Assembly (NCBI GenBank): GCA_023229825.1
Contig: JALNYN010000005.1
Location: 1,933 to 65,932 of the forward strand
DNA from: Minisyncoccota bacterium
GTDB taxonomy: Bacteria > Patescibacteriota > Minisyncoccia > Phycocordibacterales > CAIJYI01
Length of the DNA stretch: 64,000 nucleotides
Direction of reading: 5' to 3'
The translations under genes were made by a program, and so were the position numbers. Positions 26,351-58,147 of this stretch are shown in pieces (positions within the stretch are counted from its first letter, which is position 1; each line of letters begins with the position of its first letter). The notes beneath the pieces were generated by a model. The model worked only from the letters and a program-made list of their open reading frames with translations, ran no database searches and was not told the origin of the DNA.

Positions 26351-26400
26351 CGTCATCCCCCCACCGTCATTCCGGACCGCGATCCGGAATCCACGTCCGT
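26351..26400. repeat. family-B REP unit (singlet), copy 1
   Basis: gtcattccggaccgcgatccggaatccacgtc. Confidence 0.55.
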
Positions 26401-26405
26401 CGGCG

Positions 26406-27116
26406 TTAACTAAGAAGTGTCAGAAACTCCGACAGCTCTTTTCCTTTTAATTGCCTCGACGCTCGCGGATTGAGCGCGCCGAGCGTTATGTTCATGATAC
26501 GAATTCGTTTGATATCTTTGACAGTATATCCGAGCGCTGCGCACATTCGGCGGAGCTGATGTTTTTTTCCTTCCGTAATGACAATATTTATTTTGCAATT
26601 TCCCGCTTCTTTTGCGCGTGCGGGTTTGGTTCGGTATCCTTCAATATCCACACCGCGTTCCATGTCTTTTATAAATCGCGCGGTTACCGGTTTGTCTACG
26701 GTTACCATATATTCCTTTTCGTGTTTTCTCTCCGGAGATAAAAGTTTTTCGGTGATCCTGCCATCATTGGTGAGAATAATGAGTCCGTGCGAATCTTTAT
26801 CCAGCCGGCCGATAGGGAACACTTCGCCGCGAATTTTTCCTCGGATCGCATCCTCGATGCTTTCCTCGTCATTCTGCGGACTATGCGTGATCATTCCGCG
26901 CGGTTTATAATATGCATAATACAAATACTCTTTTTTGTCGGCGCCCCTTACTGTCACGGTATCTCCTTCGTTCACCAGATCGCCCAATTTTGCCAAGCGG
27001 CCGTTTATCGTCACCTTTTTATCTTCAATGAGTATATCGGCACCGCGCCGTGTAGTCTCACCGCGAGCGGCGAGATATTTATTTATGCGGACCGGATATT
27101 CGTTTTCTTGAGTCAT
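26406..27116 (-). CDS. rRNA pseudouridine synthase (RsuA/RluB family, S4 domain)
   Basis: N-terminal S4 (RINKYLAARG), catalytic GRLDKDSHGLIILTNDG. Confidence 0.85.
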   Translation of the reverse strand: MTQENEYPVRINKYLAARGETTRRGADILIEDKKVTINGRLAKLGDLVNEGDTVTVRGADKKEYLYYAYYKPRGMITHSPQNDEESIEDAIRGKIRGEVFPIGRLDKDSHGLIILTNDGRITEKLLSPERKHEKEYMVTVDKPVTARFIKDMERGVDIEGYRTKPARAKEAGNCKINIVITEGKKHQLRRMCAALGYTVKDIKRIRIMNITLGALNPRASRQLKGKELSEFLTLLS

Positions 27117-27185
27117 AGTGTTGACAACAATAGCTTGTTTATGGTATTATGTCAAGTGGATTTTAAGTAACTGCTCAAACCCTCT

Positions 27186-27270
27186 CGTCATCCCGGGCAA
27201 CGACCCGGGATCCACGGCGTAAACGGAACGACCAACGTGGATCCTGAATCCCTGTTCAGGATGACGACGA
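27186..27270. repeat. family-B REPIN-like element, copy 2
   Basis: gtcatcccgggcaacgacccgggatccacg ... cgtggatcctgaatccctgttcaggatgac. Confidence 0.55.
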
Positions 27271-27354
27271 ATGAATTTTAAAGCTTTTTTGTTTAAAAAA
27301 TAAGGGGTGTGAGCAATTACGATTTTAATTGTCAGAATTCCGAAGGAGGAATAC

Positions 27355-27987
27355 ATGAAAAAGTTTATTGGTAAGCTCGGCGTGTTTCTCGCCGATCGGT
27401 TTACCGGACGAAACGCTTGTACTTTTGAAGTGCGAGATAAAATAATGACGCGGGCGAATATGGTGACTCTGCTCGGTATTGTTTTGACGACGATCTATCT
27501 TGGTCAGTATACGCTGGGAATACTATTATTTCTTATTCCGGTTATATATCCATTGACCCCCGTGACTGACGGCGTTGATGGATTTCTTGCGGATTATTAC
27601 AATGAACACAGCAAGTGGGGAAAAATAGTGGATCCGTTTCGCGACAGATATTTCACATTCGTCGCGCTCGGAAATATCTTTATGATCGGAGGCAAGATCA
27701 TATTACTGCCTCTGCTTATGACCCTCGGTTTTGAATTGCTTATTTGGGTCGGCGGTTTGATCTTGTACGCCGTCGGTGATGTGCCGAATGTCCACTGCAT
27801 CGGAAAAGTTCGCGCAGCGGTACATTGGGCGGTCGGATACATAGTCATCATTCAATATTATTGGATCGGTACTTTTTACATTCCCATCCTGTGGCTTATG
27901 TGGATTATGGCAATCGCGAGTATTGCGGCATATGTATTTTATGTCTATCGCTATGCGATGAAAAATATAGAACATATTTCTGCGTAG
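27355..27987 (+). CDS. CDP-alcohol phosphatidyltransferase family membrane protein
   Basis: DGVDGFLAD...GKIVDPFRD approximates the D-G-x2-A-R...G-x3-D-x3-D signature; multiple TM helices. Confidence 0.55.
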   Translation: MKKFIGKLGVFLADRFTGRNACTFEVRDKIMTRANMVTLLGIVLTTIYLGQYTLGILLFLIPVIYPLTPVTDGVDGFLADYYNEHSKWGKIVDPFRDRYFTFVALGNIFMIGGKIILLPLLMTLGFELLIWVGGLILYAVGDVPNVHCIGKVRAAVHWAVGYIVIIQYYWIGTFYIPILWLMWIMAIASIAAYVFYVYRYAMKNIEHISA

Positions 27988-28049
27988 AAGAAGAGGGGGC
28001 ATTAATGCTCCCTCGTTTTTTTACCCGAAATGTGGTATAATCGAAAAAC

Positions 28050-28766
28050 ATGAAGATAAAAACGAATCTCCATTTTCATACGGCGGATGATCCTTCTGAT
28101 CCCGTTTCTTATTCCACCAAAGAGGGGATCGACAAAGCGGTGTCTCTCGGATTCGGCGCTCTGGCGATAACCTGCCATCAGAAATATGCTTGGACGGAAG
28201 AATATTCCGAATATGCGGAAAGCAAAGGATTGCTTTTTATTCCCGGGATCGAAATATACATCGGAGAAACAAGGTCGCATTCAAAGTCTCATGTCCTCAT
28301 CCTGAACGCCACCAAAGGCGCAGAAAATATCCGTACGTTTCGCGAACTCGACGCATACAAAAAAGAACATCCCGAATCATTCATCATGGCTCCGCATCCG
28401 TATTTTTACGGAAATATTTCTCTCAAAGAATGGCTCGAAAAATACATTCATCTTTTTGATGCGGTGGAGCAATCGTGGTTTTATTCGCGCTGGTTTAACC
28501 GAAACAAAAAAGGGAAGTCGGTCGCAGAAAAACATAAACTGCCGTTCGTTTCCACTTCCGACACGCATTTTTTCGATTTTTTGGATACCAATTATTGTAC
28601 GGTAGAGGCGGAAAGCGCGTCTGTCGAAGCGATCTTTTCCGCCCTTCGCGAAGGAAAATTCGAGAACACGACATCGCGGCGAAATTTTTGGCGCGACATG
28701 GTATGGAAACAAGCAATGTTTTCCTTAAAGACGTATCTGCGCAGAAACAAGAAACGCGGTCAATAA
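28050..28766 (+). CDS. PHP-domain metal-dependent phosphoesterase
   Basis: NLHFHTADD His motif at N-terminus, further His/Asp positions typical of PHP fold. Confidence 0.7.
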   Translation: MKIKTNLHFHTADDPSDPVSYSTKEGIDKAVSLGFGALAITCHQKYAWTEEYSEYAESKGLLFIPGIEIYIGETRSHSKSHVLILNATKGAENIRTFRELDAYKKEHPESFIMAPHPYFYGNISLKEWLEKYIHLFDAVEQSWFYSRWFNRNKKGKSVAEKHKLPFVSTSDTHFFDFLDTNYCTVEAESASVEAIFSALREGKFENTTSRRNFWRDMVWKQAMFSLKTYLRRNKKRGQ

Positions 28767-28855
28767 AAGCTCCTTCTTTGGGTACTTGCATAAATTCATT
28801 AAGTGTGGTATAATGAAAGTTACATTAAGTTTCAAAATCTTTAGTATATAGGTAC

Positions 28856-30103
28856 ATGTCGGAATTTTTGATCATCGTTACGAATATTTTGCTTTTTATC
28901 ACCTTATACGCTCAGGTGCTTTTGCTGTTTACCTTCTTTGAAAAGAAGAACGTGTTTGCGAATACCGGCGGAGGCGATGACGCGCCGCTCCAAAGATATC
29001 CCATCGTGACCATTGTCGTGCCGGTGTGGAATGAAGAAAAAACGCTCGGCGGAACCATCGAGTCGCTGCTCGCGCTCGACTATCCGAAAGACAAACTCGA
29101 CATCATCATCGTTGATGACGGAAGTACGGATCACACGCGCGAGGTGGCAAACACTTTTAAATCACATCCTGAGGTCAGAGTATATTCTAAAACGAACGGG
29201 GGAAAGCATACGGCGGTCAACCTCGGCATATCAAAAGCAAAAGGAGAATTTCTCGGCTGTCTCGATGCCGATTCCTTCGTCGACAAAGACGCGCTTACTC
29301 GCATTGTTCGCTGTTTTGAAGATCCGAAGGTCATGGCGGTCACGCCGGCGATCAAAGTTCATACTCCTGAAAATATGCTTCAAAAAATGCAGAGCGTGGA
29401 GTACGATATGGGAATTTTTCTCCGCAAGGTGTACGGTTCAATGAACGCGATCCATGTCGCCCCCGGACCTTTTTCCATTTTTCGCAAGGAAGTTTTTGAC
29501 AAACTGGGAGGTTATATAAAAGCTCATAATACCGAGGACATGGAATTTGCCATGCGAATGCACAAAAATCATTTCCCGATCGCAAATGTCTATGATTCGT
29601 ACGTGTATACCGTCACCCCGAAAACCGTCAAAGGTTTATATAAACAACGTCTGCGCTGGGTCTATGGTTTCCTCGAGAACGCATCAGATTATCGAAGCAT
29701 GATATTCAATCGAAAATACGGAAATCTGGGAATGTTCACTCTGCCCGCCGCCGTAATATCTATTTTTGCCGCGCTCTTCTTTACCGGTCTTGCCATCTCT
29801 CGTCTGCTTACCAGCGTGTGGAGGAAGATGGTGGAAATACAGGCGGTCGGAATACCCCTTCACTTCGAGTGGCCGCACTTTGATTGGTTCTTCGTAAACA
29901 CCAGCGAGACCGCCGTCGTCGTATATGCGCTTTCTCTCTCGACCATATTTGTCATTCTCGTCGGAAAGAAATTGTCGGAAGGAAACATGCGACCGAACAT
30001 GAACATGGTTTATTTTTTCTTCTTTTATGGTATTATTGCCCCAGCCTGGCTGTTTAAAGCCGTATATAATGTAGCGTTGAACAAAAAAACAACTTGGAGA
30101 TAA
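28856..30103 (+). CDS. processive family-2 glycosyltransferase (membrane-embedded polysaccharide synthase type)
   Basis: VVPVWNEE, IIVDDGSTD, LDADS, QRLRW (QxxRW) motifs plus N- and C-terminal TM helices. Confidence 0.8.
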   Translation: MSEFLIIVTNILLFITLYAQVLLLFTFFEKKNVFANTGGGDDAPLQRYPIVTIVVPVWNEEKTLGGTIESLLALDYPKDKLDIIIVDDGSTDHTREVANTFKSHPEVRVYSKTNGGKHTAVNLGISKAKGEFLGCLDADSFVDKDALTRIVRCFEDPKVMAVTPAIKVHTPENMLQKMQSVEYDMGIFLRKVYGSMNAIHVAPGPFSIFRKEVFDKLGGYIKAHNTEDMEFAMRMHKNHFPIANVYDSYVYTVTPKTVKGLYKQRLRWVYGFLENASDYRSMIFNRKYGNLGMFTLPAAVISIFAALFFTGLAISRLLTSVWRKMVEIQAVGIPLHFEWPHFDWFFVNTSETAVVVYALSLSTIFVILVGKKLSEGNMRPNMNMVYFFFFYGIIAPAWLFKAVYNVALNKKTTWR

Positions 30104-30107
30104 CGAG

Positions 30108-30185
30108 CTTTCAGCTGTTAGGTTTTAGGTGTTAGCTTATCGGCCGGCGGAAAGCTAAAACCTAAAACCTAAAAGCTAAAAACTA
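30108..30185. repeat. palindromic hairpin (26-bp arms) downstream of GT2 gene
   Basis: agctgttaggttttaggtgttagctt ... aagctaaaacctaaaacctaaaagct. Confidence 0.5.
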
Positions 30186-30190
30186 AATTT

Positions 30191-30886
30191 ATGCACACCG
30201 CAGATTGGAAAAAATATTTATATGTATTGCTGATCACCGTCGCGATCTTTCTGACGGCTTTTTTTGTGAGCAATACGCTCAGTAATAAAAAGATCGAAGA
30301 TATCCAAACGGCGCAGAACCGCGTCTCCATCGACATCCTTTCTTCTGAAACGCAGTTCGATCTTTTATCCGAATCTTCATGCGAGACCGTCGGAGATACT
30401 TCTTTGTCAAAAGACCTTGATTCTTTGGGGGCGAAACTTTCCTATGCGGAAGTGAATTTAAATGACACCAATACGGAGGACGTCTTGTGGCTCAAAAAAA
30501 ATTACACGCTGCTTGAGATCAAAGATTATATTCTCATGAGAAGGCTTTCCTCAAGCTGCGAGGAGAAACCCGTGTTTATTCTCTATTTCTATTCCAACGC
30601 TAAAGGAGCTTGTCCGGATTGCCAGAAAGAAGGAGCCGTCCTGACCGAACTCCGAAAAAAATATCCCGGACTTCGCGTGTACTCCTTTGATTATGATCTC
30701 GATCTTGCCGCTTTGAAGACGCTGGTATCGCTTTACGACATTCAGCCCAATTTGCCGGCGCTCGTAATTCATAAACAGGTGGGTTATGGATTCAAGACTA
30801 TCGAGGAAGTGGAAACTATGATGCCGGAACTGGCGACCCTGACCGGAACTACGACCGTGGCAACATCAACTCCGGAGAAGAAATAA
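30191..30886 (+). CDS. membrane-anchored thioredoxin-like protein (CPDC motif)
   Basis: N-terminal TM anchor; GACPDCQKEG CxxC motif. Confidence 0.45.
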   Translation: MHTADWKKYLYVLLITVAIFLTAFFVSNTLSNKKIEDIQTAQNRVSIDILSSETQFDLLSESSCETVGDTSLSKDLDSLGAKLSYAEVNLNDTNTEDVLWLKKNYTLLEIKDYILMRRLSSSCEEKPVFILYFYSNAKGACPDCQKEGAVLTELRKKYPGLRVYSFDYDLDLAALKTLVSLYDIQPNLPALVIHKQVGYGFKTIEEVETMMPELATLTGTTTVATSTPEKK

Positions 30887-31495
30887 AGATACCAATATAC
30901 GAATGAATACGAATATAACGCCGCCAAAAAACATCACCAAAAAATAGACATTTACACAGTAAATTGTTACAGTTAATTTCGGATAAAGGTACCTAGGGAG
31001 GAAATGATGGCTGGAAATAAAAAAGACCATATCGTGAATGCGGTATTGTTTGCGTGCACTATCGGACTCTGTATTATTTTGTATTTTGCTCCGCAAGAAG
31101 ATGAATTTTTGCAATTTATCGCCAAGTCCGGCTTCGGGATCGCGGTCTCACTTTTGCTGATAAACGTTATTACCGATCGCCTTTGATCAGGAAATCAATC
31201 TCCGCCGGTTCGTTCGACGGAGATTTTTTGTGACGGACGATGTCGAAATTGACATTATGGCAACAATTTGTTATTGTCAACTTCGGACAAAGTTGTTGTT
31301 CCAAAAATCGAGGAGAAGAAATGTTAATCCTAAAACGTCTTGCCGGTCTGCTGATTATTATTTCCGTTATTGTTGCAATGGTCGCCACGGTAGATATCGA
31401 TGATAGTTTATATAAAATTTCTCTGGTGGTTAATTTTGGGTTAACTAGTTATATCGGCTGGGCTTTATTATTGGGATGGATAAAATAATATGCAT

Positions 31496-31530
31496 TAACG
31501 CTGTCGGCATAGTCCGACAGCGTTTTTTTT
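31496..31530 (+). terminator. rho-independent terminator
   Basis: aacgctgtcggcatagtccgacagcgtt + tttttttt. Confidence 0.8.
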
Positions 31531-31562
31531 GTATCATTGTACGAAAATGATATACTATACTG

Positions 31563-33212
31563 GTGGAAAATCTTGAGCAAAAACGACGAGTTTTGAAACG
31601 ACTGCGCGAATGGAGAGATGCGGAGGCTAAACGCATGGGCCTTGATTTTTTTCGCGTGCTTTCCAACGATGCGGTAAATGGCATCGCGGAAACTTTGCCG
31701 ACGACGAAAGAAGCGCTTTTGGAAGTGAAAGGGATCGCCGAGAAAAAATGGCAGACGTACGGGAGGGATATTCTTGCCATTGTGGCGGAAGAAACGACGC
31801 AAGGACTTTTTGCGACGGATGCCGTCGCCGGACGGGGGTTGTACCCCCGTTCGAAACGTTTGGATGAAAGCACGGAAGAAACAATAACCAAAACATCCGA
31901 ACAGGGGTACAACCCCAGTCCGGCGGACGGAAATTATGACGAAACTGAAAACGATGGCTCCCGCGATGGCTATCGACAATCCGGCGAAAAGGTCTTTACT
32001 GTTGCCGACTACTTGGAAATTCTTAATACCGGACTCCGGCAGTTTGAAGCGAAAGTCATTGGCGAGATCACCAGTTTGGATATTCGCGACAAATATATTT
32101 TTTTCAGCATCAAAGATAAAAAGGACAACGCGATGATGTCGTGTTTCATGTGGGGCTCGTCGTATAAAATGAGCGGAATTTTACTGGAAGAAGGAATGGA
32201 AGTGGCGGTGCATGGTTTTCCCGAAATGTACAAGCCGAGCGGACGCATGACGTTCCGCGCCGACAGCGTGGAATTGGTAGGCGAAGGCGCGCTTAAAAAA
32301 GCATACGATGAACTGAAAAAGAAACTTGAAAAGGAAGGGCTGTTTTTGGAGAGCAGAAAAAAACCGATCCCCGAATATCCTCAAAATATCGGGCTGATAA
32401 CATCAGAAACCGGCGCGGTCATTCACGACTTTTTGAATAACATCGGAAAATTCGGTTTCAAAATATCATTCCGCGATTCGCGCGTGGAAGGCGCGCTGGC
32501 GGTGAAAGAATTGGTGAGTGCTGTGAAATATTTTAAAAAACAAAAATCTATTGATGTATTAGTTTTGATCCGCGGAGGCGGTTCGCTCGAATCCTTGCAG
32601 GCGTTCAACAATGAAGCGCTGGTGCGCGAAATTGCCGATTGCCCGTTTCCCGTGCTGGTCGGCATCGGACACGACAAAGATGTGCCGCTCGTTTCGCTTG
32701 TTGCAGACAGAGCCGGCTCAACACCGACGGCCGTCGCCAAACTGCTTAATTCGACGTGGGAGCAAGCGCTGGCGAAGGTACGGCTTCACGAACAAAAAAT
32801 TTTGAATCGTTTTTCAGAAGCATTATATGAGAAAAAAGATAATTTGCGCGATCGTTCGGAACACATCGAAAAAAAATTCCGCATGATCTTTGAGAGATTT
32901 CGAAACGCGGAAGAAAAAATAAAAAGAAATTTCGTCGCTATCGGAAGCGCCATGGCGCGTGCAAAAGAACGGCTCGATCACTCGCAGAAAACATTAAAAG
33001 AAAAATTAACTGATGACATTCGGCGCTCTAAAGAAAAGATCATATACATCGAAAAAATGCTTGTCGCGAATAACCCCATGCGCCAGCTGAAACTCGGATA
33101 TTCGCTCGCTCTTTCAAAAGGCAAGGTGGTAAGAAAGATAGAAGATGTTGCGAGCGGCGATGAAGTTGATATCAGGGTAGAAAATGGGACGATTAAAACA
33201 AAAGTGGAATAA
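31563..33212 (+). CDS. xseA: exodeoxyribonuclease VII large subunit with N-terminal HRDC-like domain and repeat-derived linker
   Basis: FTVADYLEILNTGL... OB-fold N-terminus and catalytic core (IRGGGS, GIGHDKD); residues 1-70 HRDC-like; residues ~75-140 encoded by family-A repeat; GTG start. Confidence 0.8.
   Translation: MENLEQKRRVLKRLREWRDAEAKRMGLDFFRVLSNDAVNGIAETLPTTKEALLEVKGIAEKKWQTYGRDILAIVAEETTQGLFATDAVAGRGLYPRSKRLDESTEETITKTSEQGYNPSPADGNYDETENDGSRDGYRQSGEKVFTVADYLEILNTGLRQFEAKVIGEITSLDIRDKYIFFSIKDKKDNAMMSCFMWGSSYKMSGILLEEGMEVAVHGFPEMYKPSGRMTFRADSVELVGEGALKKAYDELKKKLEKEGLFLESRKKPIPEYPQNIGLITSETGAVIHDFLNNIGKFGFKISFRDSRVEGALAVKELVSAVKYFKKQKSIDVLVLIRGGGSLESLQAFNNEALVREIADCPFPVLVGIGHDKDVPLVSLVADRAGSTPTAVAKLLNSTWEQALAKVRLHEQKILNRFSEALYEKKDNLRDRSEHIEKKFRMIFERFRNAEEKIKRNFVAIGSAMARAKERLDHSQKTLKEKLTDDIRRSKEKIIYIEKMLVANNPMRQLKLGYSLALSKGKVVRKIEDVASGDEVDIRVENGTIKTKVE
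31824..31932. repeat. family-A palindromic repeat, copy 3 (inside xseA reading frame)
   Basis: cgccggacgggggttgtacccccgttcgaaacgtttgg ... ccgaacaggggtacaaccccagtccggcggacgg. Confidence 0.55.
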
Positions 33213-33224
33213 AACAATCCTTCG

Positions 33225-33330
33225 TCGTCATTCCGGCCCACGAGCCGGAATCCACGTCCGTCGAAAACGTGGATCCCGGGTCCATCCTTCGCAAAGGCTT
33301 CGGCATGGCGCAGCGTTGCCCGGGATGACG
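33225..33330. repeat. family-B REPIN-like element, copy 3 (long subtype with 35-bp insertion)
   Basis: cgtcattccggcccacgagccggaatccacgtc ... ggatcccgggtccatccttcgcaaaggcttcggcatggcgcagcgttgcccgggatgac. Confidence 0.55.
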
Positions 33331-33358
33331 GACAGGGTGTTAGCTAAATAGTAAATAT

Positions 33359-33574
33359 ATGGAAAAGAAAACAAATGGAGTAAATTTGAACGAAACTTTG
33401 AAAAAATTGGAAGCCATTTCTTCTTGGTTTGATTCTCAGCGCGAGGTCGATGTGGAGGAAGGACTGAAGAAAGTAAAAGAGGGTGCCGAACTGATCAAAG
33501 CGAGCAAGGCGCGTCTTGCAGAGATCGAGAATGAGTTTGAAGAAGTGAAGAAGGGGATGGCGGACGATGATTAA
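33359..33574 (+). CDS. xseB: exodeoxyribonuclease VII small subunit
   Basis: 71-aa helical protein LEAISSWFDSQ...EEGLKK...GAELIKASKARLAEIE pattern; adjacent to xseA. Confidence 0.75.
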   Translation: MEKKTNGVNLNETLKKLEAISSWFDSQREVDVEEGLKKVKEGAELIKASKARLAEIENEFEEVKKGMADDD

Positions 33575-33726
33575 AGATTACTGATTAAAGATTTCAGAAA
33601 TATCTCCTGACGTTCTGCCATAAGTAGAAAAACCCGAGGGTGGGAGTTTATCCACGCCTTTGTTTCGTGTGGCGTAGAATTTTTTGATATACTTCAAGCA
33701 TATTCATTAATTTTTAATCGTTTTTT

Positions 33727-38392: not shown

Positions 38393-38546
38393 CTTAACCA
38401 ATGCAACCGACGTCAACATTACAAAAAATATCCCACCGAAAATTTCAGACAAACGGCACCCGGTTTTTTCCGCGCGACACTTTCATATGCAAAAAGAAAC
38501 GTTACAACACGCGTTTATCAAAACAATGGTGCCTGTCCCCATTTTC
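38393..38546. repeat. ~160-bp direct repeat unit H, copy 1 (ends in family-C REP-like hairpin)
   Basis: ttaaccaatgcaaccgac...ttccgcgcgacactttcatatgcaaaaagaaacgttacaacacgcgtttatcaaaacaatggtgcctgtccccatttt; near-identical at 40160-40333, degenerate at 40814-40979. Confidence 0.6.
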
Positions 38547-40166: not shown

Positions 40167-40333
40167 AACGTGAGAAAATTTTAACCAATGCAACCGACAG
40201 TAACATTACAAAAAACATCCAACAGAAAATTTCAGACAAACGGCGTCCGATTTTTTCCGCGCGACACTTTTATATGCAAAAAGAAACGTTACAACACGCG
40301 TTTATCAAAACAATGGTGCCTGTCCCCATTTTC
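40160..40333. repeat. direct repeat unit H, copy 2
   Basis: Starts within the last codons of paralog 2 and runs through a second copy of the MQKETLQHAFIKTMVPVPIF start and REP-C hairpin. Confidence 0.6.
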
Positions 40334-48478: not shown

Positions 48479-48556
48479 GAAACGCCACGTTTTGACAAAA
48501 ATAATTAATTATGTTAAGTTACGAAGCGGTTTGGTCCAGAATAGGAGATATATATC

Positions 48557-48817: not shown

Positions 48818-49027
48818 AATATACCCGTCGCGGATGCAAAGCAAAAATGCCTGTCATGAGAACCGGCGGAACGACTTTTTTTGGCGGTTGGTCAGGTGAA
48901 TGGAGAAAGGACAAGTCCGTCAAATAATATCAAATCACTTGGGTTTACTCCAAGTGATTTTTTTTGCATGTCGTCCGTATACCTATACTCATCTCCAATT
49001 AACCTGTTCTTTTTTCTAACGCACCTA

Positions 49028-49102
49028 TCGTCATTCCGGACTTGATCCGGAATCCACGTCCGGCGGTATGGCGTGGATCCCGGGTCCCGGCCCGGGATGA
49101 CG
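49028..49102. repeat. family-B REPIN-like element, copy 4
   Basis: gtcattccggacttgatccggaatccacgtc ... cgtggatcccgggtcccggcccgggatgac. Confidence 0.6.
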
Positions 49103-49182
49103 AATGAAATTGTTTAGTTAGAAATGGAAATTACGCGTCCTATTGTTCCATTCTCGCGCGTAATTGCCCGTCGCCGTTCGTT

Positions 49183-49222
49183 CCCTGATACTGATACTTT
49201 CTCCTGATACTTTAACGCTGTG
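49183..49222. repeat. family-E repeat
   Basis: tccctgatactgatactttctcctgatactttaa. Confidence 0.45.
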
Positions 49223-49251
49223 GATTACTCTCACTTTGCTGTAGACGCTCC

Positions 49252-49590: not shown

Positions 49591-49650
49591 CCGAGACTTT
49601 TCGAAAATTATTCCCAAATTAATTATTAACAGTTAATCATAGATAATCAT

Positions 49651-50052: not shown

Positions 50053-50092
50053 TCAAAAAAACCGCTTCATTGTTAAATTGAAGCGGTTTTTT
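50048..50092 (+). terminator. rho-independent terminator
   Basis: aaaccgcttcattgttaaattgaagcggttt + tttt. Confidence 0.8.
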
Positions 50093-50150
50093 CTATTCTC
50101 AATTCTCAATTCTCTATTTTCTATTTTCTATTTTCGTGTTTCGTCTTTTC
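50093..50150. repeat. heptamer microsatellite (TTCTATT / TTCTCAA units)
   Basis: ctattctcaattctcaattctctattttctattttctattttcg; related tracts at 53624-53665 (reverse orientation) and 53841-53875. Confidence 0.6.
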
Positions 50151-50165
50151 TGTTATACTTTCTGT

Positions 50166-51203: not shown

Positions 51204-51221
51204 ATATTTTTTTTCGCCCGT

Positions 51222-51298
51222 CGTCATCCCGGGCAGCGACCCGGGATCCACGGAGAGCGATGACACGACGTGGATTCCGGGTCGCGGCCCGGAATGAC
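51222..51298. repeat. family-B REPIN-like element, copy 5
   Basis: gtcatcccgggcagcgacccgggatccacg ... cgtggattccgggtcgcggcccggaatgac. Confidence 0.6.
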
Positions 51299-51350
51299 GC
51301 GGAATGGAGGCGATACCCTTGAAAGAACTCTATTAAATAAAAAAAATATT

Positions 51351-52007
51351 ATGAATCCACAATATACCGTTCTCAAGCGTTTTTATTTCGTTCGACACGG
51401 GCAGACCGTACATAATGTGAATAATGAATATCAAGACGGAAAAGACCCTTTGACGGAAAAAGGGATGGAGCAGGCGTCGCTTGTCGCCGAAAGATTCGTG
51501 TCGATACCCGCGGATCGCATTATCGCCAGCGATTACCAGCGTACTCAGCAAACCGCGCATGCGATCTCAGAAAAGACCGGCCTCGAGATCACTTCGTCGG
51601 AACTCTTTCGGGAATTACGAAGGCCAACAGATCTGGTCGGAAAAAAAAGATTTATTCCGGAATCAAAGCTGATAATGGACGAAATGATCGAACACGAACC
51701 GATCCCCGATTGGCATCATCTCGACGAAGAGAATTTATTTGAAGCGGTGGCTCGTGCGAGAAAAGCGCTTGATTATTTATGTTCGGTCAAAGAAGAAACG
51801 GTTATCGTGGTAACGCACGAATTGTTTATCAAGATCATGCTGTCCGCCATGGCGGTTGAAGATGATGCGAAAGCCGTCGAATTCTATCGGACCATGCGTT
51901 ATTTTATGGTGGGAGATAACACGGGCATCACGATCGCGGAATATGGAAATTTCATAAACGATATCCGTTTTCGATTGCGCATTTGGAACGATCACGCGCA
52001 TCTATAA
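51351..52007 (+). CDS. histidine phosphatase family protein (phosphoglycerate mutase-like)
   Basis: FVRHGQT catalytic RHG motif; ORF-track N-terminal extension (from 51270) is read through the REPIN copy and is not credited. Confidence 0.75.
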   Translation: MNPQYTVLKRFYFVRHGQTVHNVNNEYQDGKDPLTEKGMEQASLVAERFVSIPADRIIASDYQRTQQTAHAISEKTGLEITSSELFRELRRPTDLVGKKRFIPESKLIMDEMIEHEPIPDWHHLDEENLFEAVARARKALDYLCSVKEETVIVVTHELFIKIMLSAMAVEDDAKAVEFYRTMRYFMVGDNTGITIAEYGNFINDIRFRLRIWNDHAHL

Positions 52008-52044
52008 AAGTTCATAAACTTTATAAACTTGATAAACTTAATCT

Positions 52045-52443
52045 ATGGATGAACCAACAAACATTGTAATTCCTCAAAAAGTACCGGAAAAGCCGGTCAA
52101 AAAATTACCGGAGGGCAGCGGTTCTTTACCTACGAAAGCCAACCAGGACACTCTTGATAAGGTGTTCGACATGATGAAAAATCCGAAGCATTACAACATC
52201 AAAGTAAAGTCCGAAGATGATAACAAGAAATTGAGCTTTGTTACCGGCCTGAAGCTTATTGAAGGCACATTTCTTACTGAAACGGCGGTAATGACCATGA
52301 GAGTATCGGGAGTGAATATTTCTTTAAACGTCGGAGGTGCTCTTGCCGACACGTGGAGTATCGAAGGCGTAAAAACATACGTTGAGAAAGGGTATGATAC
52401 GGCTTACGATTTTGCCGATTGGCTGTGGAAGAACAAGAAATAA
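52045..52443 (+). CDS. hypothetical protein
   Basis: 132 aa, no motifs. Confidence 0.4.
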   Translation: MDEPTNIVIPQKVPEKPVKKLPEGSGSLPTKANQDTLDKVFDMMKNPKHYNIKVKSEDDNKKLSFVTGLKLIEGTFLTETAVMTMRVSGVNISLNVGGALADTWSIEGVKTYVEKGYDTAYDFADWLWKNKK

Positions 52444-52487
52444 AACGGTTGGACGCGTCCAAATAATGCCGTAATCGTTGTTTTACT

Positions 52488-52547
52488 GTCATCCCGGGCC
52501 GAGACCCGGGATCCACGTCGGTAGTTCGTCCGATGCGGATGATGACG
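52488..52547. repeat. family-B REP unit with partial partner, copy 6
   Basis: gtcatcccgggccgagacccgggatccacgtc ... ggatgatgac. Confidence 0.5.
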
Positions 52548-52556
52548 GTTACCAAT

Positions 52557-52607
52557 CGTTCGTATTCGTTGCCATTAGTATATTGGTACCCATTCGTATA
52601 TTAGTAT
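52557..52607. repeat. family-D half element
   Basis: cgttcgtattcgttgccattagtatattggtacccattcgtatattagtat. Confidence 0.5.
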
Positions 52608-53621
52608 CTAGAGCGAGGAATGTTTTTTATCGACTTTTCCTGACTCGAGTATCTTTTCGGTCATGCCGATCGATTGCGATGCGAACGTTCCAAGCGAAGC
52701 ATATTTTCTCATATCTTCTTCGGAGTGAGCGTCAGGTCCGCCGCTCGCTATGCCATCGTAAATTTTAAGAAGTTTTCGCAGTTCGATCTTGTCAGCTTCG
52801 ATCTCGGACTCGTTCTTTTGACCGATCTGCCAAAGTCCGTAAACGGTTTCCATTCCGTCGATCCTCTTTTCTTTCAGCAGCTTTTCGATAAAGAAATAAT
52901 CCATTTTTTTCTTCACGGTGAAATAGTGCGCGATAACGGCGACCCCGCCGGCATCTCGAATAAGTTTTGCCGATTCGTCGAGATCCGGCGCGTATGTGAC
53001 TTCTTCATAGCCTTTCAGGTAGGCATCCGGCGAAAGAAAAAGGGAATAGGGAATTTGGTGTTCTCCTGCGCCCATCATTTTTTCATATTTTTCTCGAACT
53101 TCACTATCGGTTTCCGCTTCCTTTTTCATTTTTTCGATCAAGAGCTTGGTAACATTTTCGTTCTCGGGATGTAATTTCAGCGCTTCGACGATATGAGGCC
53201 TGCCGATAGCTTCGCCTCCGGACGCGATAAGACATTCGCTCTCCGAAATACTGAACCCGAGGAGCTTGAGATTAAAAACTATTTTTTCCATTCTCTCCAC
53301 CCGCGCAGCCTGCGCTTTTGTACAGTGCTCCATGAGTGCCGGGTTTTTCGGGTCGACAAATAGTCCGATGACATGCAGACCGCCTTTACCGAGACCCGAG
53401 ATCTCTTTCGGGGGCGCTGCGCTGATCTCGATCCCGGAGATCCATTTTGTGCGAGAAGATTTTACCGTGGTGAGATAGGAGATCGCATCGTCATTAAGGA
53501 TCGCATCATGGTCGGTAAAAGCGACAACAGAAACGTTGAGCGATTCCGCCAGCAAAAACATCTGCTTGTGAGATAGCTTGCCATCGGAAAGGGTCGTGTG
53601 AGTATGAAGTGATTCGAACAT
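52608..53621 (-). CDS. PHP-domain phosphoesterase
   Basis: N-terminal LHTHTTLSDG and AFTDHD His/Asp motifs. Confidence 0.7.
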   Translation of the reverse strand: MFESLHTHTTLSDGKLSHKQMFLLAESLNVSVVAFTDHDAILNDDAISYLTTVKSSRTKWISGIEISAAPPKEISGLGKGGLHVIGLFVDPKNPALMEHCTKAQAARVERMEKIVFNLKLLGFSISESECLIASGGEAIGRPHIVEALKLHPENENVTKLLIEKMKKEAETDSEVREKYEKMMGAGEHQIPYSLFLSPDAYLKGYEEVTYAPDLDESAKLIRDAGGVAVIAHYFTVKKKMDYFFIEKLLKEKRIDGMETVYGLWQIGQKNESEIEADKIELRKLLKIYDGIASGGPDAHSEEDMRKYASLGTFASQSIGMTEKILESGKVDKKHSSL

Positions 53622-53623
53622 AA

Positions 53624-53665
53624 TAATAGAAAATAGAAAATAGAAAATTGAAAATAGATTAAAGA
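53624..53665. repeat. heptamer microsatellite (aaatagaaaat units)
   Basis: aataatagaaaatagaaaatagaaaattgaaaatagatt. Confidence 0.55.
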
Positions 53666-53687
53666 TTATTTATTTTTAACTTTTATT

Positions 53688-53762
53688 CGTCATTCCCTTG
53701 AAAAAGGGAATCCAGAATTCATATCAATAAACTCTGGATTCCCGCCTTCGCGGGAATGACGG
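53688..53762. repeat. family-B-related palindromic element, copy 7 (divergent arms)
   Basis: cgtcattcccttgaaaaagggaatccag ... ctggattcccgccttcgcgggaatgacg. Confidence 0.5.
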
Positions 53763-53840
53763 GCAAAGAAGTTGTTTTTGTTTTTAATGTCTTAGAAGGA
53801 TATTTTTTATTTAGCGGATTTTTTTTATTTAATCAATTTT

Positions 53841-53875
53841 CTATTCTCAATTATCTATTCTCTTCGTCTTCGCTA
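53841..53875. repeat. heptamer microsatellite
   Basis: ctattctcaattatctattctcttcgtcttcgc. Confidence 0.45.
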
Positions 53876-53876
53876 G

Positions 53877-53948
53877 TCCCCCCGGCAAGAATCGAACTTG
53901 CATTTTAAGTTCCGGAAACTTATGTCCTATCCATTGAACGACGGAGGG
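53877..53948 (-). tRNA. tRNA-Arg (anticodon CCG)
   Basis: Minus-strand cloverleaf: acceptor CCCTCCG/CGGGGGG, D-arm GTTC..GGAC, anticodon stem TAAGT/ACTTA with loop TTCCGGA, T-arm GCAAG-TTCGATT-CTTGC, discriminator A; no encoded CCA. Confidence 0.75.
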
Positions 53949-53954
53949 ATTTTA

Positions 53955-54040
53955 GAGTATCAGGGGGCAGTATCAGTATCAGGAAATGACGCCATCCGTC
54001 GCCCCTGATACCGATACCCATCCCTGATACTTATACATGG
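53955..54040. repeat. family-E inverted repeat pair
   Basis: agagtatcagggggcagtatcagtatcagg ... cccctgataccgatacccatccctgatactta. Confidence 0.5.
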
Positions 54041-54238
54041 TATCCTTTACAATACCGAAAGTAAATAGCGTAAAATGCGGTTATCACACATTTGTTTGAC
54101 TTTAATCCGCGGTTTCGTCTATAATGTTTTGTATAGTGTTTTCGGCGATAAAGAGGGTAGTTTCTACGGCGTTGTGCTCGTGAATAAGCCATCTTGCCCT
54201 ACACGTTAAAAGGTCGAGAATTAAATAAAATATTTAAA

Positions 54239-54586
54239 ATGGCGTACGATAACAACGGAGGCGGCTTCACACCACGACCCATGTTCCAGGGTAACTGGTC
54301 ATGCTCGGGTTGCGGAGGCGCAATACATGAACTTCCTTTCCAGCCGGATCAGGAGAGACTCGGACAGCTTCTCTGCCGCGATTGCCACAGAGCAAAGCGA
54401 GGAGATAGGGACACCCGAGGAGGAGGAAATCGCGACAATAGAGGTCCTCGCACCATGCACCAGGGCAATTGGTCCTGCTCAGGATGCGGAACCGCTATCA
54501 ACGAACTTCCTTTCGAACCGGATGAGTCCAGACTCGGGCAGCTTCTCTGCCGAGATTGCCACAGGGCAAAAAGAGGGAATATGTAA
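54239..54586 (+). CDS. tandem zinc-ribbon protein with Arg/Gly-rich linker (hypothetical nucleic-acid-binding protein)
   Basis: Two copies of QGNWSCSGCGxAIxELPFxPDxxRLGQLLCRDCHRAKRG (CxxC...CxxC) separated by GDRDTRGGGNRDNRG; encoded by a ~100-bp internal direct repeat (~80% identical). Confidence 0.5.
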   Translation: MAYDNNGGGFTPRPMFQGNWSCSGCGGAIHELPFQPDQERLGQLLCRDCHRAKRGDRDTRGGGNRDNRGPRTMHQGNWSCSGCGTAINELPFEPDESRLGQLLCRDCHRAKRGNM

Positions 54587-54732
54587 AACAAAGAAAAACG
54601 ATCCCGCAAGGGGTCGTTTTTTTGTATTGACATTTGACAGATTAAATGCTTATAATGCACTTGGAATGCAAACTAAGGAACGATCTATTTCCGAAATATG
54701 CATCGTTTTTACCTTGAAGGAGGTATTGAAAA

Positions 54733-55374
54733 ATGACCGAAGAAACAAAAGTTGAAGCCGTCAAATCTTCAGAACAACCAGCCACACCGGAAAAAGAAGC
54801 GGTAAGCTCAGCACCGCCAAAAACCGCGCCCAAAACCAATCAGGCGAAGAAAAAAAGAGCATGGCCGGTCCTCTCAATATTGGGATTAATTTTTGCGTTT
54901 CTGATCTTCGGGGCTTTGATGCTCGTTATACATCCCGAGATCGAAGATGCCATCATGAGCAAAAAATTGACCGAGGAGAATTTTAGCGCCGCGCTCGTTA
55001 AGCAAGCGCCCGGATTGGCAGATGAATATCCTGTTTCCGTAGTGGTTAAATATAAAACCGCTCTGGGAGTATTGGAATCACGGGAACCCATCGTGTTCGA
55101 ATATGGTGTGGCCGCAGATGGAACCAAATGCGTTCAATATTATTATTCCACAGATGTAAAGAATGCTCCGACGAAACAGGCTTGCGTCGCTCCAAAAAAA
55201 GTGCACGAGCCCGGTTGGACAGAAAAAACATGGAATACCGTTGCTTCATGGGAAGGTTGGCAACAGGCCAACGACGCTTGGAATAAAGCAGAACATCAGG
55301 CTTCCGACCTCTGGTCAAAAACGGCGAATTATGCCGCCGACCTTTGGTCTAAAGTACTTGATCTCGTTCACTAA
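54733..55374 (+). CDS. hypothetical membrane-anchored protein
   Basis: Pro/Lys-rich N-terminus, single TM, Trp-rich C-terminal repeats (WNKAEHQASDLWSKTANYAADLWSK). Confidence 0.45.
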   Translation: MTEETKVEAVKSSEQPATPEKEAVSSAPPKTAPKTNQAKKKRAWPVLSILGLIFAFLIFGALMLVIHPEIEDAIMSKKLTEENFSAALVKQAPGLADEYPVSVVVKYKTALGVLESREPIVFEYGVAADGTKCVQYYYSTDVKNAPTKQACVAPKKVHEPGWTEKTWNTVASWEGWQQANDAWNKAEHQASDLWSKTANYAADLWSKVLDLVH

Positions 55375-55395
55375 TAAGTCAGATCGATATCCTCA

Positions 55396-55428
55396 TGCCC
55401 CGCCCAAAAGCGGGGTATTTTTTTTCTG
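55396..55428 (+). terminator. rho-independent terminator
   Basis: ccccgcccaaaagcgggg + tattttttttt. Confidence 0.75.
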
Positions 55429-55454
55429 TAAAACACGCATTCACAAAAAAACTC

Positions 55455-55567
55455 GTCGTCATTCCGGACAGCGATCCGGAATCCACGTCAGTGGAACTAT
55501 TAACGTGGATCCCGGATCCATCCTTCGCCAAAGGCTACGGCATGGCGCAGCGCGGTCCGGGATGACG
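55455..55567. repeat. family-B REPIN-like element, copy 8 (long subtype)
   Basis: cgtcattccggacagcgatccggaatccacgtc ... cgtggatcccggatccatccttcgccaaaggctacggcatggcgcagcgcggtccgggatgacg. Confidence 0.6.
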
Positions 55568-55674
55568 AAATAAAGCCTTAGTACGGCGGTCGTTTTTTCG
55601 AGTTGACAAAATATAAAAAATAGTGCAAAACTATACATAGTACCTTGACACTATTGAAATAACAGGAGATAGAA

Positions 55675-58146
55675 ATGACAGAAACAGGATTGAGAAAAAA
55701 ACGGCTCAAAATTAAGATACAGGGCACCGTACAAGGCGTCGGATTCCGACCTTTTGTGTTGCGGCTTGCTGAGAAACTGGGTGTTTTAGGCTGGGTTATT
55801 AACGGCGTTCGAGGCGTTGAGATCGCTGCAGAGGCGGATGTGATAGACCTTCTTGAATTTGCCCGGTGCGTTGTAGATCATGCTCCCGAAGTGGCGGCGA
55901 TCGATTTCGTGGAATATTCGTATCTCGACGATACGGAAAAATATGAAAAATTCGAAATTCGCGAAAGCGACAATTTTGGAGAAAAAACAGCCTTGGTGCT
56001 TCCCGACTTGGCAACATGTCCGGAGTGCCAAAGCGAAATATTCGACAGAAAAAATCGGCGCTTTCGGTATCCGTTCACGAACTGCACCAACTGCGGTCCG
56101 CGACATTCAATTATCGAACGGGTCCCGTATGATCGCCCGAATACATCGATGAAAGTTTTTCCGATGTGTCCGGAATGCGAGAAAGAATACAACGATCCTG
56201 CGAATCGCAGGTTCTATGCACAGCCGAACGCATGCCCAGTTTGCGGTCCGCATTTGGTACTGCTGGATCAAAATGGAAAAGATCTCGCAACTCGAGATAG
56301 TGCGCTTCGTATGGCAGAAGAATATATTGATTACGGAAAAGTCGTCGCCTTAAAAGGGCTTGGCGGTTTTCAATTGATAGTCGATGCCATTAATCCGATC
56401 GCGATCAAAAAGTTGCGCGAGAGAAAGGGACGGCCAGGACAAAAACCGTTTGCGGTTATGTATCCGAACATTGAACTGGTAAAAGCGCATTGCGAAGTTT
56501 CGATGGAAGAAGAAAAACTTCTTTTGTCCCGACAATCGCCGATCGTGCTTTTAAAGAGGAAGGACCGTCCTTCCGAAGTTGAGAAAGTTCCACATAAAGA
56601 TATCGCTCCCGATAGCAACGTTCTCGGCGTGATGCTTCCATACACTCCGCTTCATCATCTATTGATGGCGGATCTCGGTTTTCCGATCGTTGCCACGAGC
56701 GGCAACTTGTCGGACGAGCCTATCATTACGGATGAGGATGAGGCGGTCGTATTGCTTGGACATATTGCGGACGCTTTTCTCGTTCATAATCGCGGTATCG
56801 TTCGTCACGTTGACGATTCGATCGCGAGAGTGATAAACGGGAAGACTGTCATCTTGAGAAGGGCGCGGGGATACGCTCCGATGCCTATAAAAGTCGAAAG
56901 TCGAAAGTCCCTGCTTCGCCAAGGCTATGCAGGGCAAGCACCAGTCGAAAGTACGCCGACGATCGTGGCTTTTGGTCCAGATCTGAAAAATGTGGGGGCG
57001 GTTCTCACCGATGGCAAAGTCTATTTGACACAGCACATCGGCGATATGGGAACCACAGCTTCCGGGGACGCACTTTTGAGATCGATCAACGACACGCTCG
57101 CTTTTCGGGAGAAAAAACCGGAGGCGGTTGTCTGCGATCTGCATCCCGATTACGCATCGACAAGAATGGCGGAAGCGTTTGCCGAGGAACATCACATTCC
57201 TCTCTATCGCGTCCAGCATCACAAAGCGCATATTTTATCCGCAATGACTGAAAATGACATTGTAGGAAAAACAGCGCTCGGTGTGGCTTGGGACGGTACG
57301 GGATACGGCGAAGACGGCACGATCTGGGGCGGAGAATTTTTCCGCGTCAGCGAAACCGGCCTCACGCGCTACGCGCATTTGCGCACTTTCGGTTTGATCG
57401 GCGGCGACAAAGCCGCACGTGAGCCGAGATACTCCGCAGCCGCGATCCTTTATGAGATCTACGGAAAAGAAATTTTCGATTCCGACAGATTCGCATCGGT
57501 GAAAGCGCTGATTGGCGTTGAAAGGAAACTCTTTCCTCAAATGCTGAAAAACAAAATGAACGTCGTTATGACATCCAGTGCCGGAAGATTGTTCGATGCC
57601 GTCGCTTCGATCCTAGATATTTGCCACTCGTCCGATTATGAAGGGCATGCGGCGATACTTTTGGAACAGGCGATCGGCGATGAAACGACCAATGAAAATT
57701 ATGAGATATCCGTCGTAAAAGATGGGGATGAATATATATTTAATTGGGAACCGATGATCCGCGACATCGTATATGAATACGAGTTGGGAATTCGTCCGGG
57801 CGTTATTGCGAAAAAAATTCACAATACGCTCGCGAGGGTGATCGCTCGAATTTTTCTCGTTTCAGGAGAAGGACGGCTTGTTCTTTCCGGCGGATGTTTT
57901 CAAAATAAATATCTGTTGGAAACAACGATAAAAAAACTTGAGGGATATTCGGACGACGGCAGAATATTCACTCAAGGCAAGGTGCCGATGAATGACGGAG
58001 GCATTGCTCTCGGTCAGATCACGGCGGTGTTAGATTCCGTCCGTCATTCCGGACTTGATCCGGAATCCACGTCGGAAACGTTAAATATAGATTCCGGGTC
58101 CATCCTCCGCCAAGGCTACGGCATGGCGCGGCGTTGCCCGGAATGA
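55675..58146 (+). CDS. hypF: [NiFe]-hydrogenase maturation carbamoyltransferase HypF
   Basis: Acylphosphatase domain (IQGTVQGVGFRPFV), two CxxC-x18-CxxC zinc fingers, YrdC and Kae1-like domains; last ~35 codons lie in a family-B repeat. Confidence 0.9.
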   Translation: MTETGLRKKRLKIKIQGTVQGVGFRPFVLRLAEKLGVLGWVINGVRGVEIAAEADVIDLLEFARCVVDHAPEVAAIDFVEYSYLDDTEKYEKFEIRESDNFGEKTALVLPDLATCPECQSEIFDRKNRRFRYPFTNCTNCGPRHSIIERVPYDRPNTSMKVFPMCPECEKEYNDPANRRFYAQPNACPVCGPHLVLLDQNGKDLATRDSALRMAEEYIDYGKVVALKGLGGFQLIVDAINPIAIKKLRERKGRPGQKPFAVMYPNIELVKAHCEVSMEEEKLLLSRQSPIVLLKRKDRPSEVEKVPHKDIAPDSNVLGVMLPYTPLHHLLMADLGFPIVATSGNLSDEPIITDEDEAVVLLGHIADAFLVHNRGIVRHVDDSIARVINGKTVILRRARGYAPMPIKVESRKSLLRQGYAGQAPVESTPTIVAFGPDLKNVGAVLTDGKVYLTQHIGDMGTTASGDALLRSINDTLAFREKKPEAVVCDLHPDYASTRMAEAFAEEHHIPLYRVQHHKAHILSAMTENDIVGKTALGVAWDGTGYGEDGTIWGGEFFRVSETGLTRYAHLRTFGLIGGDKAAREPRYSAAAILYEIYGKEIFDSDRFASVKALIGVERKLFPQMLKNKMNVVMTSSAGRLFDAVASILDICHSSDYEGHAAILLEQAIGDETTNENYEISVVKDGDEYIFNWEPMIRDIVYEYELGIRPGVIAKKIHNTLARVIARIFLVSGEGRLVLSGGCFQNKYLLETTIKKLEGYSDDGRIFTQGKVPMNDGGIALGQITAVLDSVRHSGLDPESTSETLNIDSGSILRQGYGMARRCPE

Positions 58147-58147
58147 C
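58043..58147. repeat. family-B REPIN-like element, copy 9 (long subtype) overlapping hypF 3' end
   Basis: cgtcattccggacttgatccggaatccacgtc ... attccgggtccatcctccgccaaggctacggcatggcgcggcgttgcccggaatgac. Confidence 0.6.

Follow-up and report, generated by a model that had tools for sequence, protein, structure and literature searches.

Paired hairpin repeats on a Candidatus Paceibacterota contig and their probable place among CGTC-tagged, Ssn-related motifs

A family of short hairpin repeats was followed up in a window of 64,000 nucleotides (the whole stretch of DNA that was analysed) from a metagenome-assembled genome (MAG) of Candidatus Paceibacterota. All coordinates below are window positions; the window corresponds to positions 1797-65796 of the 78,344-nucleotide contig k141_1286909 in ENA ERZ27249449, of which a stretch of about 74 kb (positions 1797-75753) was examined. 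Candidatus Paceibacterota is the name that NCBI attaches to a HypF protein identical to that of the window, and the closest homologues of XseA carry the names Parcubacteria, Paceibacterota or Patescibacteria. The host thus most probably belongs to the candidate phyla radiation, which would suit the word 'streamlined' in the initial annotation. Sixteen units of one kind lie at nine loci between 26351 and 58148, and two further single units were found on the contig beyond the window. Eight of these nine loci are intergenic, and the ninth (58043) forms the 3' end of the hypF open reading frame (ORF). Most copies closely follow the 3' end of a gene, in gaps between co-directional or convergent neighbours, and the genes flanking the nine loci are functionally unrelated. 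The initial annotation had listed nine copies of a hairpin family resembling repetitive extragenic palindromes (REPs), arranged mostly as inverted doublets. All nine loci exist, and seven of them are inverted doublets with the heads of the two units facing outward (HH dimers), while one is a singleton and one retains a partner arm without its hairpin. The accompanying description of the doublets as mostly perfect does not hold, in that most are heterodimers with different stems in the two arms. The copy at 26351 is a single unit plus a fragment, and that at 52488 is the one with the damaged partner arm.

Read from 5' to 3', a unit consists of CGTC, AT followed by a hexamer, a loop, the reverse complement of the hexamer followed by AT, and CCA(CG). 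The head is CGTC in 14 of the 16 units and TGTC in the remaining two (52487 and 58148), and the tail is CCA(CG/GA) in all units except that at 58148, which has CTA. A stem of eight perfect pairs starting with AT is present in 16/16 units, and the stem hexamers (TCCGGA, TCCGGC, TCCGGG, CCCGGG, CCCGGA, CCTGAA, TCCCTT and TCCCGC) are each fully paired with their own partner. GTC before the palindrome and C after it are likewise found in every unit. The loop is 6 nucleotides in length in nine units, 4 in two, 5 in two and 38-39 in three. Within the seven HH dimers the units stand tail to tail across spacers of 11-19 nucleotides whose sequences are unrelated. Whole-doublet identity between loci is 52-85%, and the doublets are not recent copies of one master sequence. 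As single strands they are predicted to form one long hairpin or, alternatively, three hairpins carried on an outer CGTCAT/ATGACG stem; z-scores lie between −3.5 and −7.0 for six doublets, and the seventh, at 33225, has −2.15.

The core 15-mer GATCCGGAATCCACG gave 17 matches with up to 3 mismatches, compared with 2.87 expected, and no shuffled sequence reached 17. Fourteen of the 17 matches fall inside eight of the nine loci, and the locus at 53688, which has a different stem, is unmatched. A structure-aware scan (GTCAT, a perfect 6-nucleotide stem, a short loop and the complementary stem) placed the first unit of the window at 26365 and none in the initial 26 kb. The previously described absence of copies from the first 26 kb was thus reproduced, but it departs only weakly from randomness (P ~0.01-0.02, whether intergenic length or the number of gaps is used; a post hoc comparison), and the clustering in the distal 32 kb is not taken as a strong signal. 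The individual loci are given in Table 1.

Table 1. Hairpin-repeat loci, nested hairpins and the inverted repeats of the Y1 gene, in window coordinates
Feature	Position	Strand	Details
Head fragment, 14 nt	26351-26364		CGTCATCCCCCCAC; directly 5' of unit 26365-26395
Single unit	26365-26395	+	CGTC-ATTCCGGA-CCGCGA-TCCGGAAT-CCACG; locus 26351-26395 lies between convergent genes, after an apparent hairpin and T-run (raw sequence reading; terminator scan did not list the site)
HH doublet	27186-27266	+/-	Units 27186-27216 (+, CCCGGG) and 27236-27266 (-, CCTGAA); between divergent genes for pseudouridine synthase and CDP-alcohol phosphatidyltransferase
Long HH doublet	33226-33330	+/-	Short unit 33226-33256 (+), long-loop unit 33268-33330 (-); between xseA and xseB
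Nested hairpin of 33226-33330	33282-33313		
HH doublet	49029-49102	+/-	Units 49029-49058 (+, TCCGGA, loop CTTGA) and 49072-49102 (-, CCCGGG); z = −4.0, three hairpins on outer stem; downstream of separate terminator-like site 48932-48960
HH doublet	51222-51299	+/-	Units 51222-51252 (+) and 51269-51299 (-); z = −7.0; between dnaX and a histidine-phosphatase gene
Intact unit and damaged arm	52487-52547		Unit 52487-52517, head TGTC; partner arm keeps GGAT...ATGACG, hairpin lost
HH doublet, CGTC-1/NTS subtype	53688-53761	+/-	Units 53688-53715 (+, stem TTCCCTT) and 53734-53761 (-, CGTCATTCCCGCGAAGGCGGGAATCCAG); 4-nt loops; stem subtype TTCCC/GGGAA; z = −6.1
Long HH doublet	55457-55567	+/-	Short unit 55457-55487 (+), long-loop unit 55504-55567 (-); z = −7.0; downstream of separate terminator-like site 55395-55418
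Nested hairpin of 55457-55567	55518-55550		
Long HH doublet	58042-58148	+/-	Short unit 58042-58071 (+), identical to unit 49029-49058; long-loop unit 58087-58148 (-); hypF 3' end
Nested hairpin of 58042-58148	58100-58131		
Y1 gene inverted repeat	63228-63247		TAATGGGGTCAGGCACTATT
Y1 gene inverted repeat	63977-63996		AATGGTGCCTGACCCCATTA

The anatomy of these units is that of a family already known under two names, CGTC-tagged REPs (PMC3733652) and SRM/NTS (PMC11893778). In the 2013 survey by Di Nocera, De Gregorio and Rocco, which covered 5 phyla, for the most part alpha-Proteobacteria, and includes the families CGTC-1 and CGTC-2, CGTC-tagged REPs have an unpaired CGTC/TGTC (or CCTC) head, an 8-9-bp stem that is 'almost invariably' AT-first, a loop of 4-5 nucleotides with other lengths in some species, and an unpaired 3' tail that is mostly CCA (PMC3733652). 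HH dimers predominate among them and are often heterodimers; the repeats are mostly intergenic, close to 3' ends and sometimes intragenic, and a transposase is not associated with them (PMC3733652). Neisseria dRS3 and Rickettsia RPE-4 and RPE-6 were assigned to the same super-family (PMC3733652). More recently, Chenal et al. (2025) gave the oriented form of dRS3 the name NTS (CGTCATTCCCGCGMAVGCGGGAATCYRG) and called its relatives Ssn-related motifs (SRM) (PMC11893778). Their nuclease SsnA is a 94-aa single-domain GIY-YIG protein that binds the hairpin as single-stranded DNA (ssDNA) only, not as RNA, and cleaves on one strand, a few nucleotides upstream of the head. For cleavage it requires the three bases that precede the palindrome and for binding the C that follows it, while loop changes and extensions are tolerated. 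Transformation by NTS-bearing DNA is reduced by the enzyme, and the ssn gene, of the cd10448 type, is typically flanked by the motif (PMC11893778).

We reasoned from this correspondence that the nine loci are CGTC-tagged REPs, of the same class as the Ssn-related motifs (SRM; NTS/dRS3), which would act at the ssDNA level together with an Ssn-type nuclease, and we put the probability of this assignment at about 0.72. With CGTC-tagged REPs they share the head, the AT-first 8-bp stem, the CCA tail, a predominance of HH dimers that are often heterodimers, intergenic sites close to gene ends, an occasional intragenic copy and the lack of a linked transposase. With the Neisseria motif they share the sequence pattern itself, including the invariant and critical GTC and C, as well as clustering of copies and a largely extragenic location. 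The published SRM search pattern, HGTCWYN(0-2)YYVSBRHN(0-5)WNVSBRGN(0-2)RNCYNB, matched 5 of the 16 units, compared with 0.19 expected and a maximum of 2 in 200 shuffles, and the unit at 53734-53761 matches both this pattern and the NTS consensus CGTCATTCCCGCGMAVGCGGGAATCYRG exactly. The host, by contrast, belongs to a group outside the 2013 survey, and the dominant stems are CCGG-based rather than the TTCCCGC stems of Neisseria NTS.

Several points weigh against this assignment. The other 11 units fall outside the SRM pattern, including the common TCCGGA-stem units, which by our own reading are one position off. Most loops are 6 nucleotides in length, and three are 38-39 nucleotides with a nested hairpin, compared with 4-5 nucleotides in the published CGTC-tagged REPs (PMC3733652). 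The search for a small GIY-YIG (Ssn-like) gene, which covered the window, contig positions 1797-75753 and 1.5 kb further upstream, found none. SsnA recognition needs both sequence and structure (PMC11893778), so that cleavage of the present stems is a prediction by analogy, and how CGTC/SRM repeats multiply is not established in the literature (PMC3733652, PMC11893778).

A candidate partner nuclease was seen elsewhere. A motif search together with tblastn using the protein of one locus from a bacterial MAG (L058), over the window and all fetched loci, gave L058 as its sole match. There, a 95-aa GIY-YIG gene is preceded by a TCCGGG-stem unit 17 nucleotides ahead of its ATG and followed by an inverted unit directly past its stop, with heads outward, and many more units lie around it. 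Searches of PDB and NCBIfam with this protein gave nothing informative; its protein family is very large, often located on very short contigs, and includes a Pacebacteria entry. An 80-aa GIY-YIG protein in a relative (L151) was considered as an Ssn and rejected, as by eye it looks like a different subtype and the unit scan gave no adjoining CGTC unit. CCGG-stem units are thus linked to an Ssn-like gene in L058, and by analogy such a link may also apply to the present genome.

If the published system is taken as a guide, a unit would fold into its hairpin when the DNA becomes single-stranded during replication, repair or DNA uptake. A small single-domain GIY-YIG Ssn nuclease would then bind the hairpin and cut a few nucleotides 5' of the head, and such cutting would modulate recombination of motif-bearing ssDNA. 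The repeats may also have spread from an Ssn gene of this kind that is bordered by units. The part that NTS and SsnA play in Neisseria transformation would carry over to this organism by analogy only.

The motif itself is widespread. Scanning one genome per species with GTCATYCCGG-N7-8-CCGGRATCCACG returned more than 118 loci among the matches listed, in many phyla. Betaproteobacteria, Sphingomonadales, Desulfobacterales, Ignavibacteriales, Omnitrophota, Armatimonadota and Chloroflexia are among the hosts of the listed matches, as are Saccharibacteria, Andersenbacteria, Moranbacteria and Parcubacteria. The first arms were chosen by the scan pattern itself, so that only the partner arms represent independent evidence; among the matches listed, these have other self-complementary stems (TTGCGGG, TGCCGGA, TTCCCGC and more) with the same GTCAT head. 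An ATCCA tail was present in 236 of the 275 units among the matches listed.

Comparison with relatives bears on whether the copies are independent elements. A scan with Rfam at gathering and E-value thresholds returned only tRNA, RNase P and sub-threshold miRNA-like hairpins, and no non-coding RNA family fits the units. The long doublet between xseA and xseB is missing in three relatives (77-80% identity), and the 27186 site is empty in one relative (L150). In line with the initial annotation, the copies are independent elements and not fragments of a gene or of a known non-coding RNA, being matchless in Rfam and with empty sites seen in relatives. Counted by one and the same scan, 11 loci lie in 74 kb of the contig, compared with 2 in the 119 kb of seven loci from relatives, which were not randomly sampled, an enrichment of about 9-fold (binomial P ~9e-4). 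Exact-protein look-ups for strain variants placed hypC and hypE on the source contig only, and two proteins of the start region returned no record. In a separate observation, a Logan contig (L121, from SRR18595301) has its 3' end inside a CGTC unit of a shared locus, one of the two single units beyond the window, which corresponds to ~12740-12775 of L120. A contig from another sample that ends in this unit indicates that the same organism occurs in other samples and that the repeat breaks assemblies.

At hypF, the repeat has become part of a protein. The HypF proteins of three relatives (69-72% identity), whose hypF genes lack the element, extend 4-18 residues past a conserved ...GQITAVL, with hypC following 5-33 nucleotides on, and end 20-40 residues earlier than the HypF of the window. 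In the window the final 33 codons come from the repeat, whose terminal ATGAC contains the TGA stop. Deleting 107 nucleotides from hypF restores ...DSVK-TAA, eight nucleotides before the ribosome-binding site of hypC. Rickettsia RPE-4 (CGTC-4) and RPE-6 (CGTC-1) are likewise super-family members able to lie in frame within protein genes; unlike those internal in-frame insertions, the hypF copy replaces only the C-terminal tail and the stop.

The stems turn over even where the site is kept. At the site orthologous to 27186 in a second relative (L149; window 27160-27325 compared with L149 6105-6260), a doublet is present with conserved flanks, heads and tails, but both stems differ, being TGCGGG and ACCGGA in L149 and CCCGGG and CCTGAA in the window. 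Since the stems have been replaced while the flanks are kept, stems turn over much faster than the surrounding intergenic DNA. The pattern of change suggests replacement by recombination or conversion between copies rather than paired point mutations.

We then considered the long subtype. Three copies were previously said to share a 35-bp insertion that marks a propagating sub-family, and a shared extra segment at the same position is indeed present in all three long copies (nested hairpins in Table 1). The quoted 36-mer, allowing up to 3 mismatches, matches only 55517-55552, as the other two copies differ by 1-nucleotide indels. In unit orientation the long units read CGTC-ATCCCGGG-CAACG[32 nt]A-CCCGGGAT-CCACG and close variants thereof. 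Removing the nested 32 nucleotides from the long unit at 33268-33330 yields the unit at 27186-27216 exactly, and removing the segment from the other two yields ordinary units with CCGCGA or CAACGA loops, indicating that the extra segment lies within the normal 6-nucleotide loop, immediately ahead of the final base. It forms a small hairpin of its own, in which the loop YCGCYAARGCTAYG is conserved and the stems are variable but complementary. The sub-family is real, but its members are more aptly viewed as composites of two hairpin elements, the second nested in the loop of an ordinary unit. Given that the backbone of each long unit is closer to a short unit than to the other long units, there is a hint of repeated insertion into unit loops, or of recombination between units, over a single origin followed by spread.

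The same segment was found with other backbones and by itself. A CCTGAA-stem unit of L058 carries it, as does an NTS-type TTCCCGC-stem unit of groundwater metagenome origin (L133), where its place in the loop corresponds, as read from the printed sequences. The L133 unit was the only true long unit among 14 stretches returned by a metagenome scan with a 22-mer of the long subtype, the other 13 being apparent chance hits in sequence that looks coding; no other contig of this organism was recovered by that scan. Units whose long loops hold different nested sequences are frequent across the super-family, especially in Parcubacteria loci. A free copy of the nested hairpin lies in the hypF linker of the window (56909-56939), where it adds about 10 residues (...LLRQGYAGQA...), and another occupies the same HypF linker of a relative in another reading frame (FAKATRGK). 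There are further free copies in the leucyl-tRNA synthetase gene region of the contig and, in relatives, at the C-terminal ends of HypF and HypD. Because the nested hairpin is read in different frames, the comparison argues that the conserved entity is DNA and not a peptide. Outside the window, the nested hairpin was noted at L126 11248 and 13783, L124 2870 and L120 18845 (minus strand).

Nested-loop variants have not been described for Neisseria NTS and SsnA, though the enzyme tolerates loop extensions in vitro. By extension from that published tolerance (PMC11893778), the long-loop units would probably still be recognised by an Ssn nuclease. A more far-reaching idea, which we regard as tentative and with the odds against it, is that the nested segment is an independent small palindromic element (stem, YCGCYAARGCTAYG, matching stem, CRAG) that inserts at a fixed loop position of CGTC/SRM units with different backbones and in frame in linkers and tails of proteins such as HypF, HypD and LeuRS. 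Together with the stem replacement at 27186, it might then reflect a templated, homing-like, ssDNA-nuclease-driven turnover of hairpin repeats in small-genome Patescibacteria.

New here, beyond the two published descriptions, are the group to which the host belongs, long units of composite structure, a HypF tail encoded by the repeat and the stem replacement at an orthologous site. The class is extended to a Candidatus Paceibacterota MAG, with about 1 locus per 7 kb on the contig. The nested-hairpin units, the HypF tail and the stem replacement offer starting points on how such repeats multiply and change. As a speculation, a system that trims incoming ssDNA could be relevant to genome stability in organisms whose small genomes are believed to depend on DNA uptake.

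The location of most copies just 3' of genes, in co-directional or convergent gaps, raises the possibility that the elements act mainly as RNA, as 3' stabilisers, attenuators, terminators or small RNAs. One copy lies between xseA and xseB, which are probably co-transcribed, strong hairpins are predicted (z = −2.1 to −7.0), and the 2013 paper favours RNA roles for many REPs (PMC3733652). However, HH doublets are symmetric and hence carry no strand information, Rfam families gave no match, and SsnA does not bind RNA (PMC11893778). The copies at 49028 and 55455 lie past a separate terminator-like hairpin and T-run, and the same applies to 26351 by the raw sequence reading noted in Table 1. Of the remaining copies, one has divergent genes on its two sides and another is translated into the tail of a protein. 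With separate terminators ahead of some copies, the elements are not needed for termination, and together with the divergent and the translated copy this makes a primary terminator role unlikely, although co-transcribed copies may affect their mRNA. We consider a mainly RNA-level function improbable; it is compatible with membership of the CGTC/SRM class as a side effect and does not replace it.

The initial annotation, which called the family REPIN-like, had suggested testing for an association with a RAYT (REP-associated tyrosine transposase, of the Y1, HUH type) or another transposase; under a REPIN/RAYT reading, that enzyme would have copied the doublets. Hairpin units are arranged here as inverted doublets, as in REPINs, and a Y1_Tnp gene (PF01797) does lie within the window at 63262-63957, with a weak match to the NCBIfam model REP_Tyr_transpos. 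At 58 bits, that match nevertheless falls short of the 80-bit threshold of the family. Inverted repeats of its own (TAATGGGGTCAGGCAC.../...GTGCCTGACCCCATTA; GGGGTCAGGCAC-type) border the gene; they are unrelated to the CGTC units and carry the GGGGWSAS motif of 'TIRYT' genes (PMC3733652), and the nearest CGTC unit is about 5 kb away. Moreover, in none of the species of the 2013 survey is a Y1 gene flanked by CGTC repeats (PMC3733652). The REPIN/RAYT systems of Pseudomonas and E. coli, which are built on GTAG-type REPs, resemble the present repeats in their inverted paired hairpins, their lineage-specific abundance and a proposed dependence on a single-copy nuclease or transposase acting on ssDNA hairpins. 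They differ in having a GTAG head instead of CGTC, a RAYT flanked by its own units and near-identical doublets, whereas the doublets here are 52-85% identical with unrelated spacers. The units are not mobilised by the Y1 (RAYT-like) transposase of the window, and a REPIN origin in general is very unlikely. With the RAYT-driven lead removed, the repeats are placed in the CGTC/SRM class, for which a site-specific ssDNA nuclease is the partner.

Related copies of the motif flanking the Y1 gene were noted at 38524-38543, 40311-40330 and 62641-62660 and represent a separate small repeat family. A 573-aa AAA_15/AAA_21 ATPase encoded at 60904-62625, with weak N-terminal matches to PtuA and to retron-effector ATPases, adjoins a tRNA-Gln and the Y1 gene, and this region may be a small defence or mobile island.

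Inverted ends (CGTCAT...ATGACG), presence that differs between lineages and the report of Neisseria dRS3 as a phage recombinase target would fit miniature inverted-repeat transposable elements that a DDE or IS110-type transposase moves, or sites that such an enzyme prefers as targets. No target-site duplication was visible in the flanks of any of the seven doublets, however, and no transposase or IS110-family gene was seen among selected ORFs and the Pfam hits of called genes from 53.3-64 kb and the 3' extension. Single units also exist (26365 and the two others on the contig). Viral contigs rarely carry the motif (5 stretches in a viral contig collection), and carriage of the units by phage is not supported. 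This explanation is accordingly remote. Finally, selected binding sites of a host DNA-binding protein (a regulator, a nucleoid protein or gyrase; cf. E. coli BIMEs) that did not spread as repeats could account for conserved heads and tails with varying stems, and for the 27186 doublet being enclosed, in the promoter region of divergent genes, by a larger palindrome that is conserved (GTAACTGCTCAMAC ... GTGTGAGCARTTAC), but such sites are scarcely credible beside functionally unrelated neighbouring genes, a copy within a coding region, empty sites beside the same genes in relatives and the same motif across many phyla.

Other repeats were observed in the same stretch. A 123-nucleotide inverted doublet at 25534-25656, with heads CGTCGTCGTTCC outward and a different body (CCTCCCCCTC-TTCA-GAGGGGAGG; z = −5.5), lies just past a terminator-like site and 0.7 kb ahead of the first listed copy, and may be a divergent relative of the CGTC units. 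Another hairpin family, CGGACGGGGTTTGTAACCCCGTCCG, occurs at 7718-7756, 19220-19258 and 31825-31925, including an inverted pair at 31826-31925, and is probably the one that the initial annotation counted as its first REPIN-like family. AT-rich short-period repeats (TTTTCTATTCTCAATT and similar) at 50087-50154, 53617-53666 and 53818-53863, both direct and inverted, flank several genes, and similar AT-rich repeats fill intergenic gaps in the relative L150.

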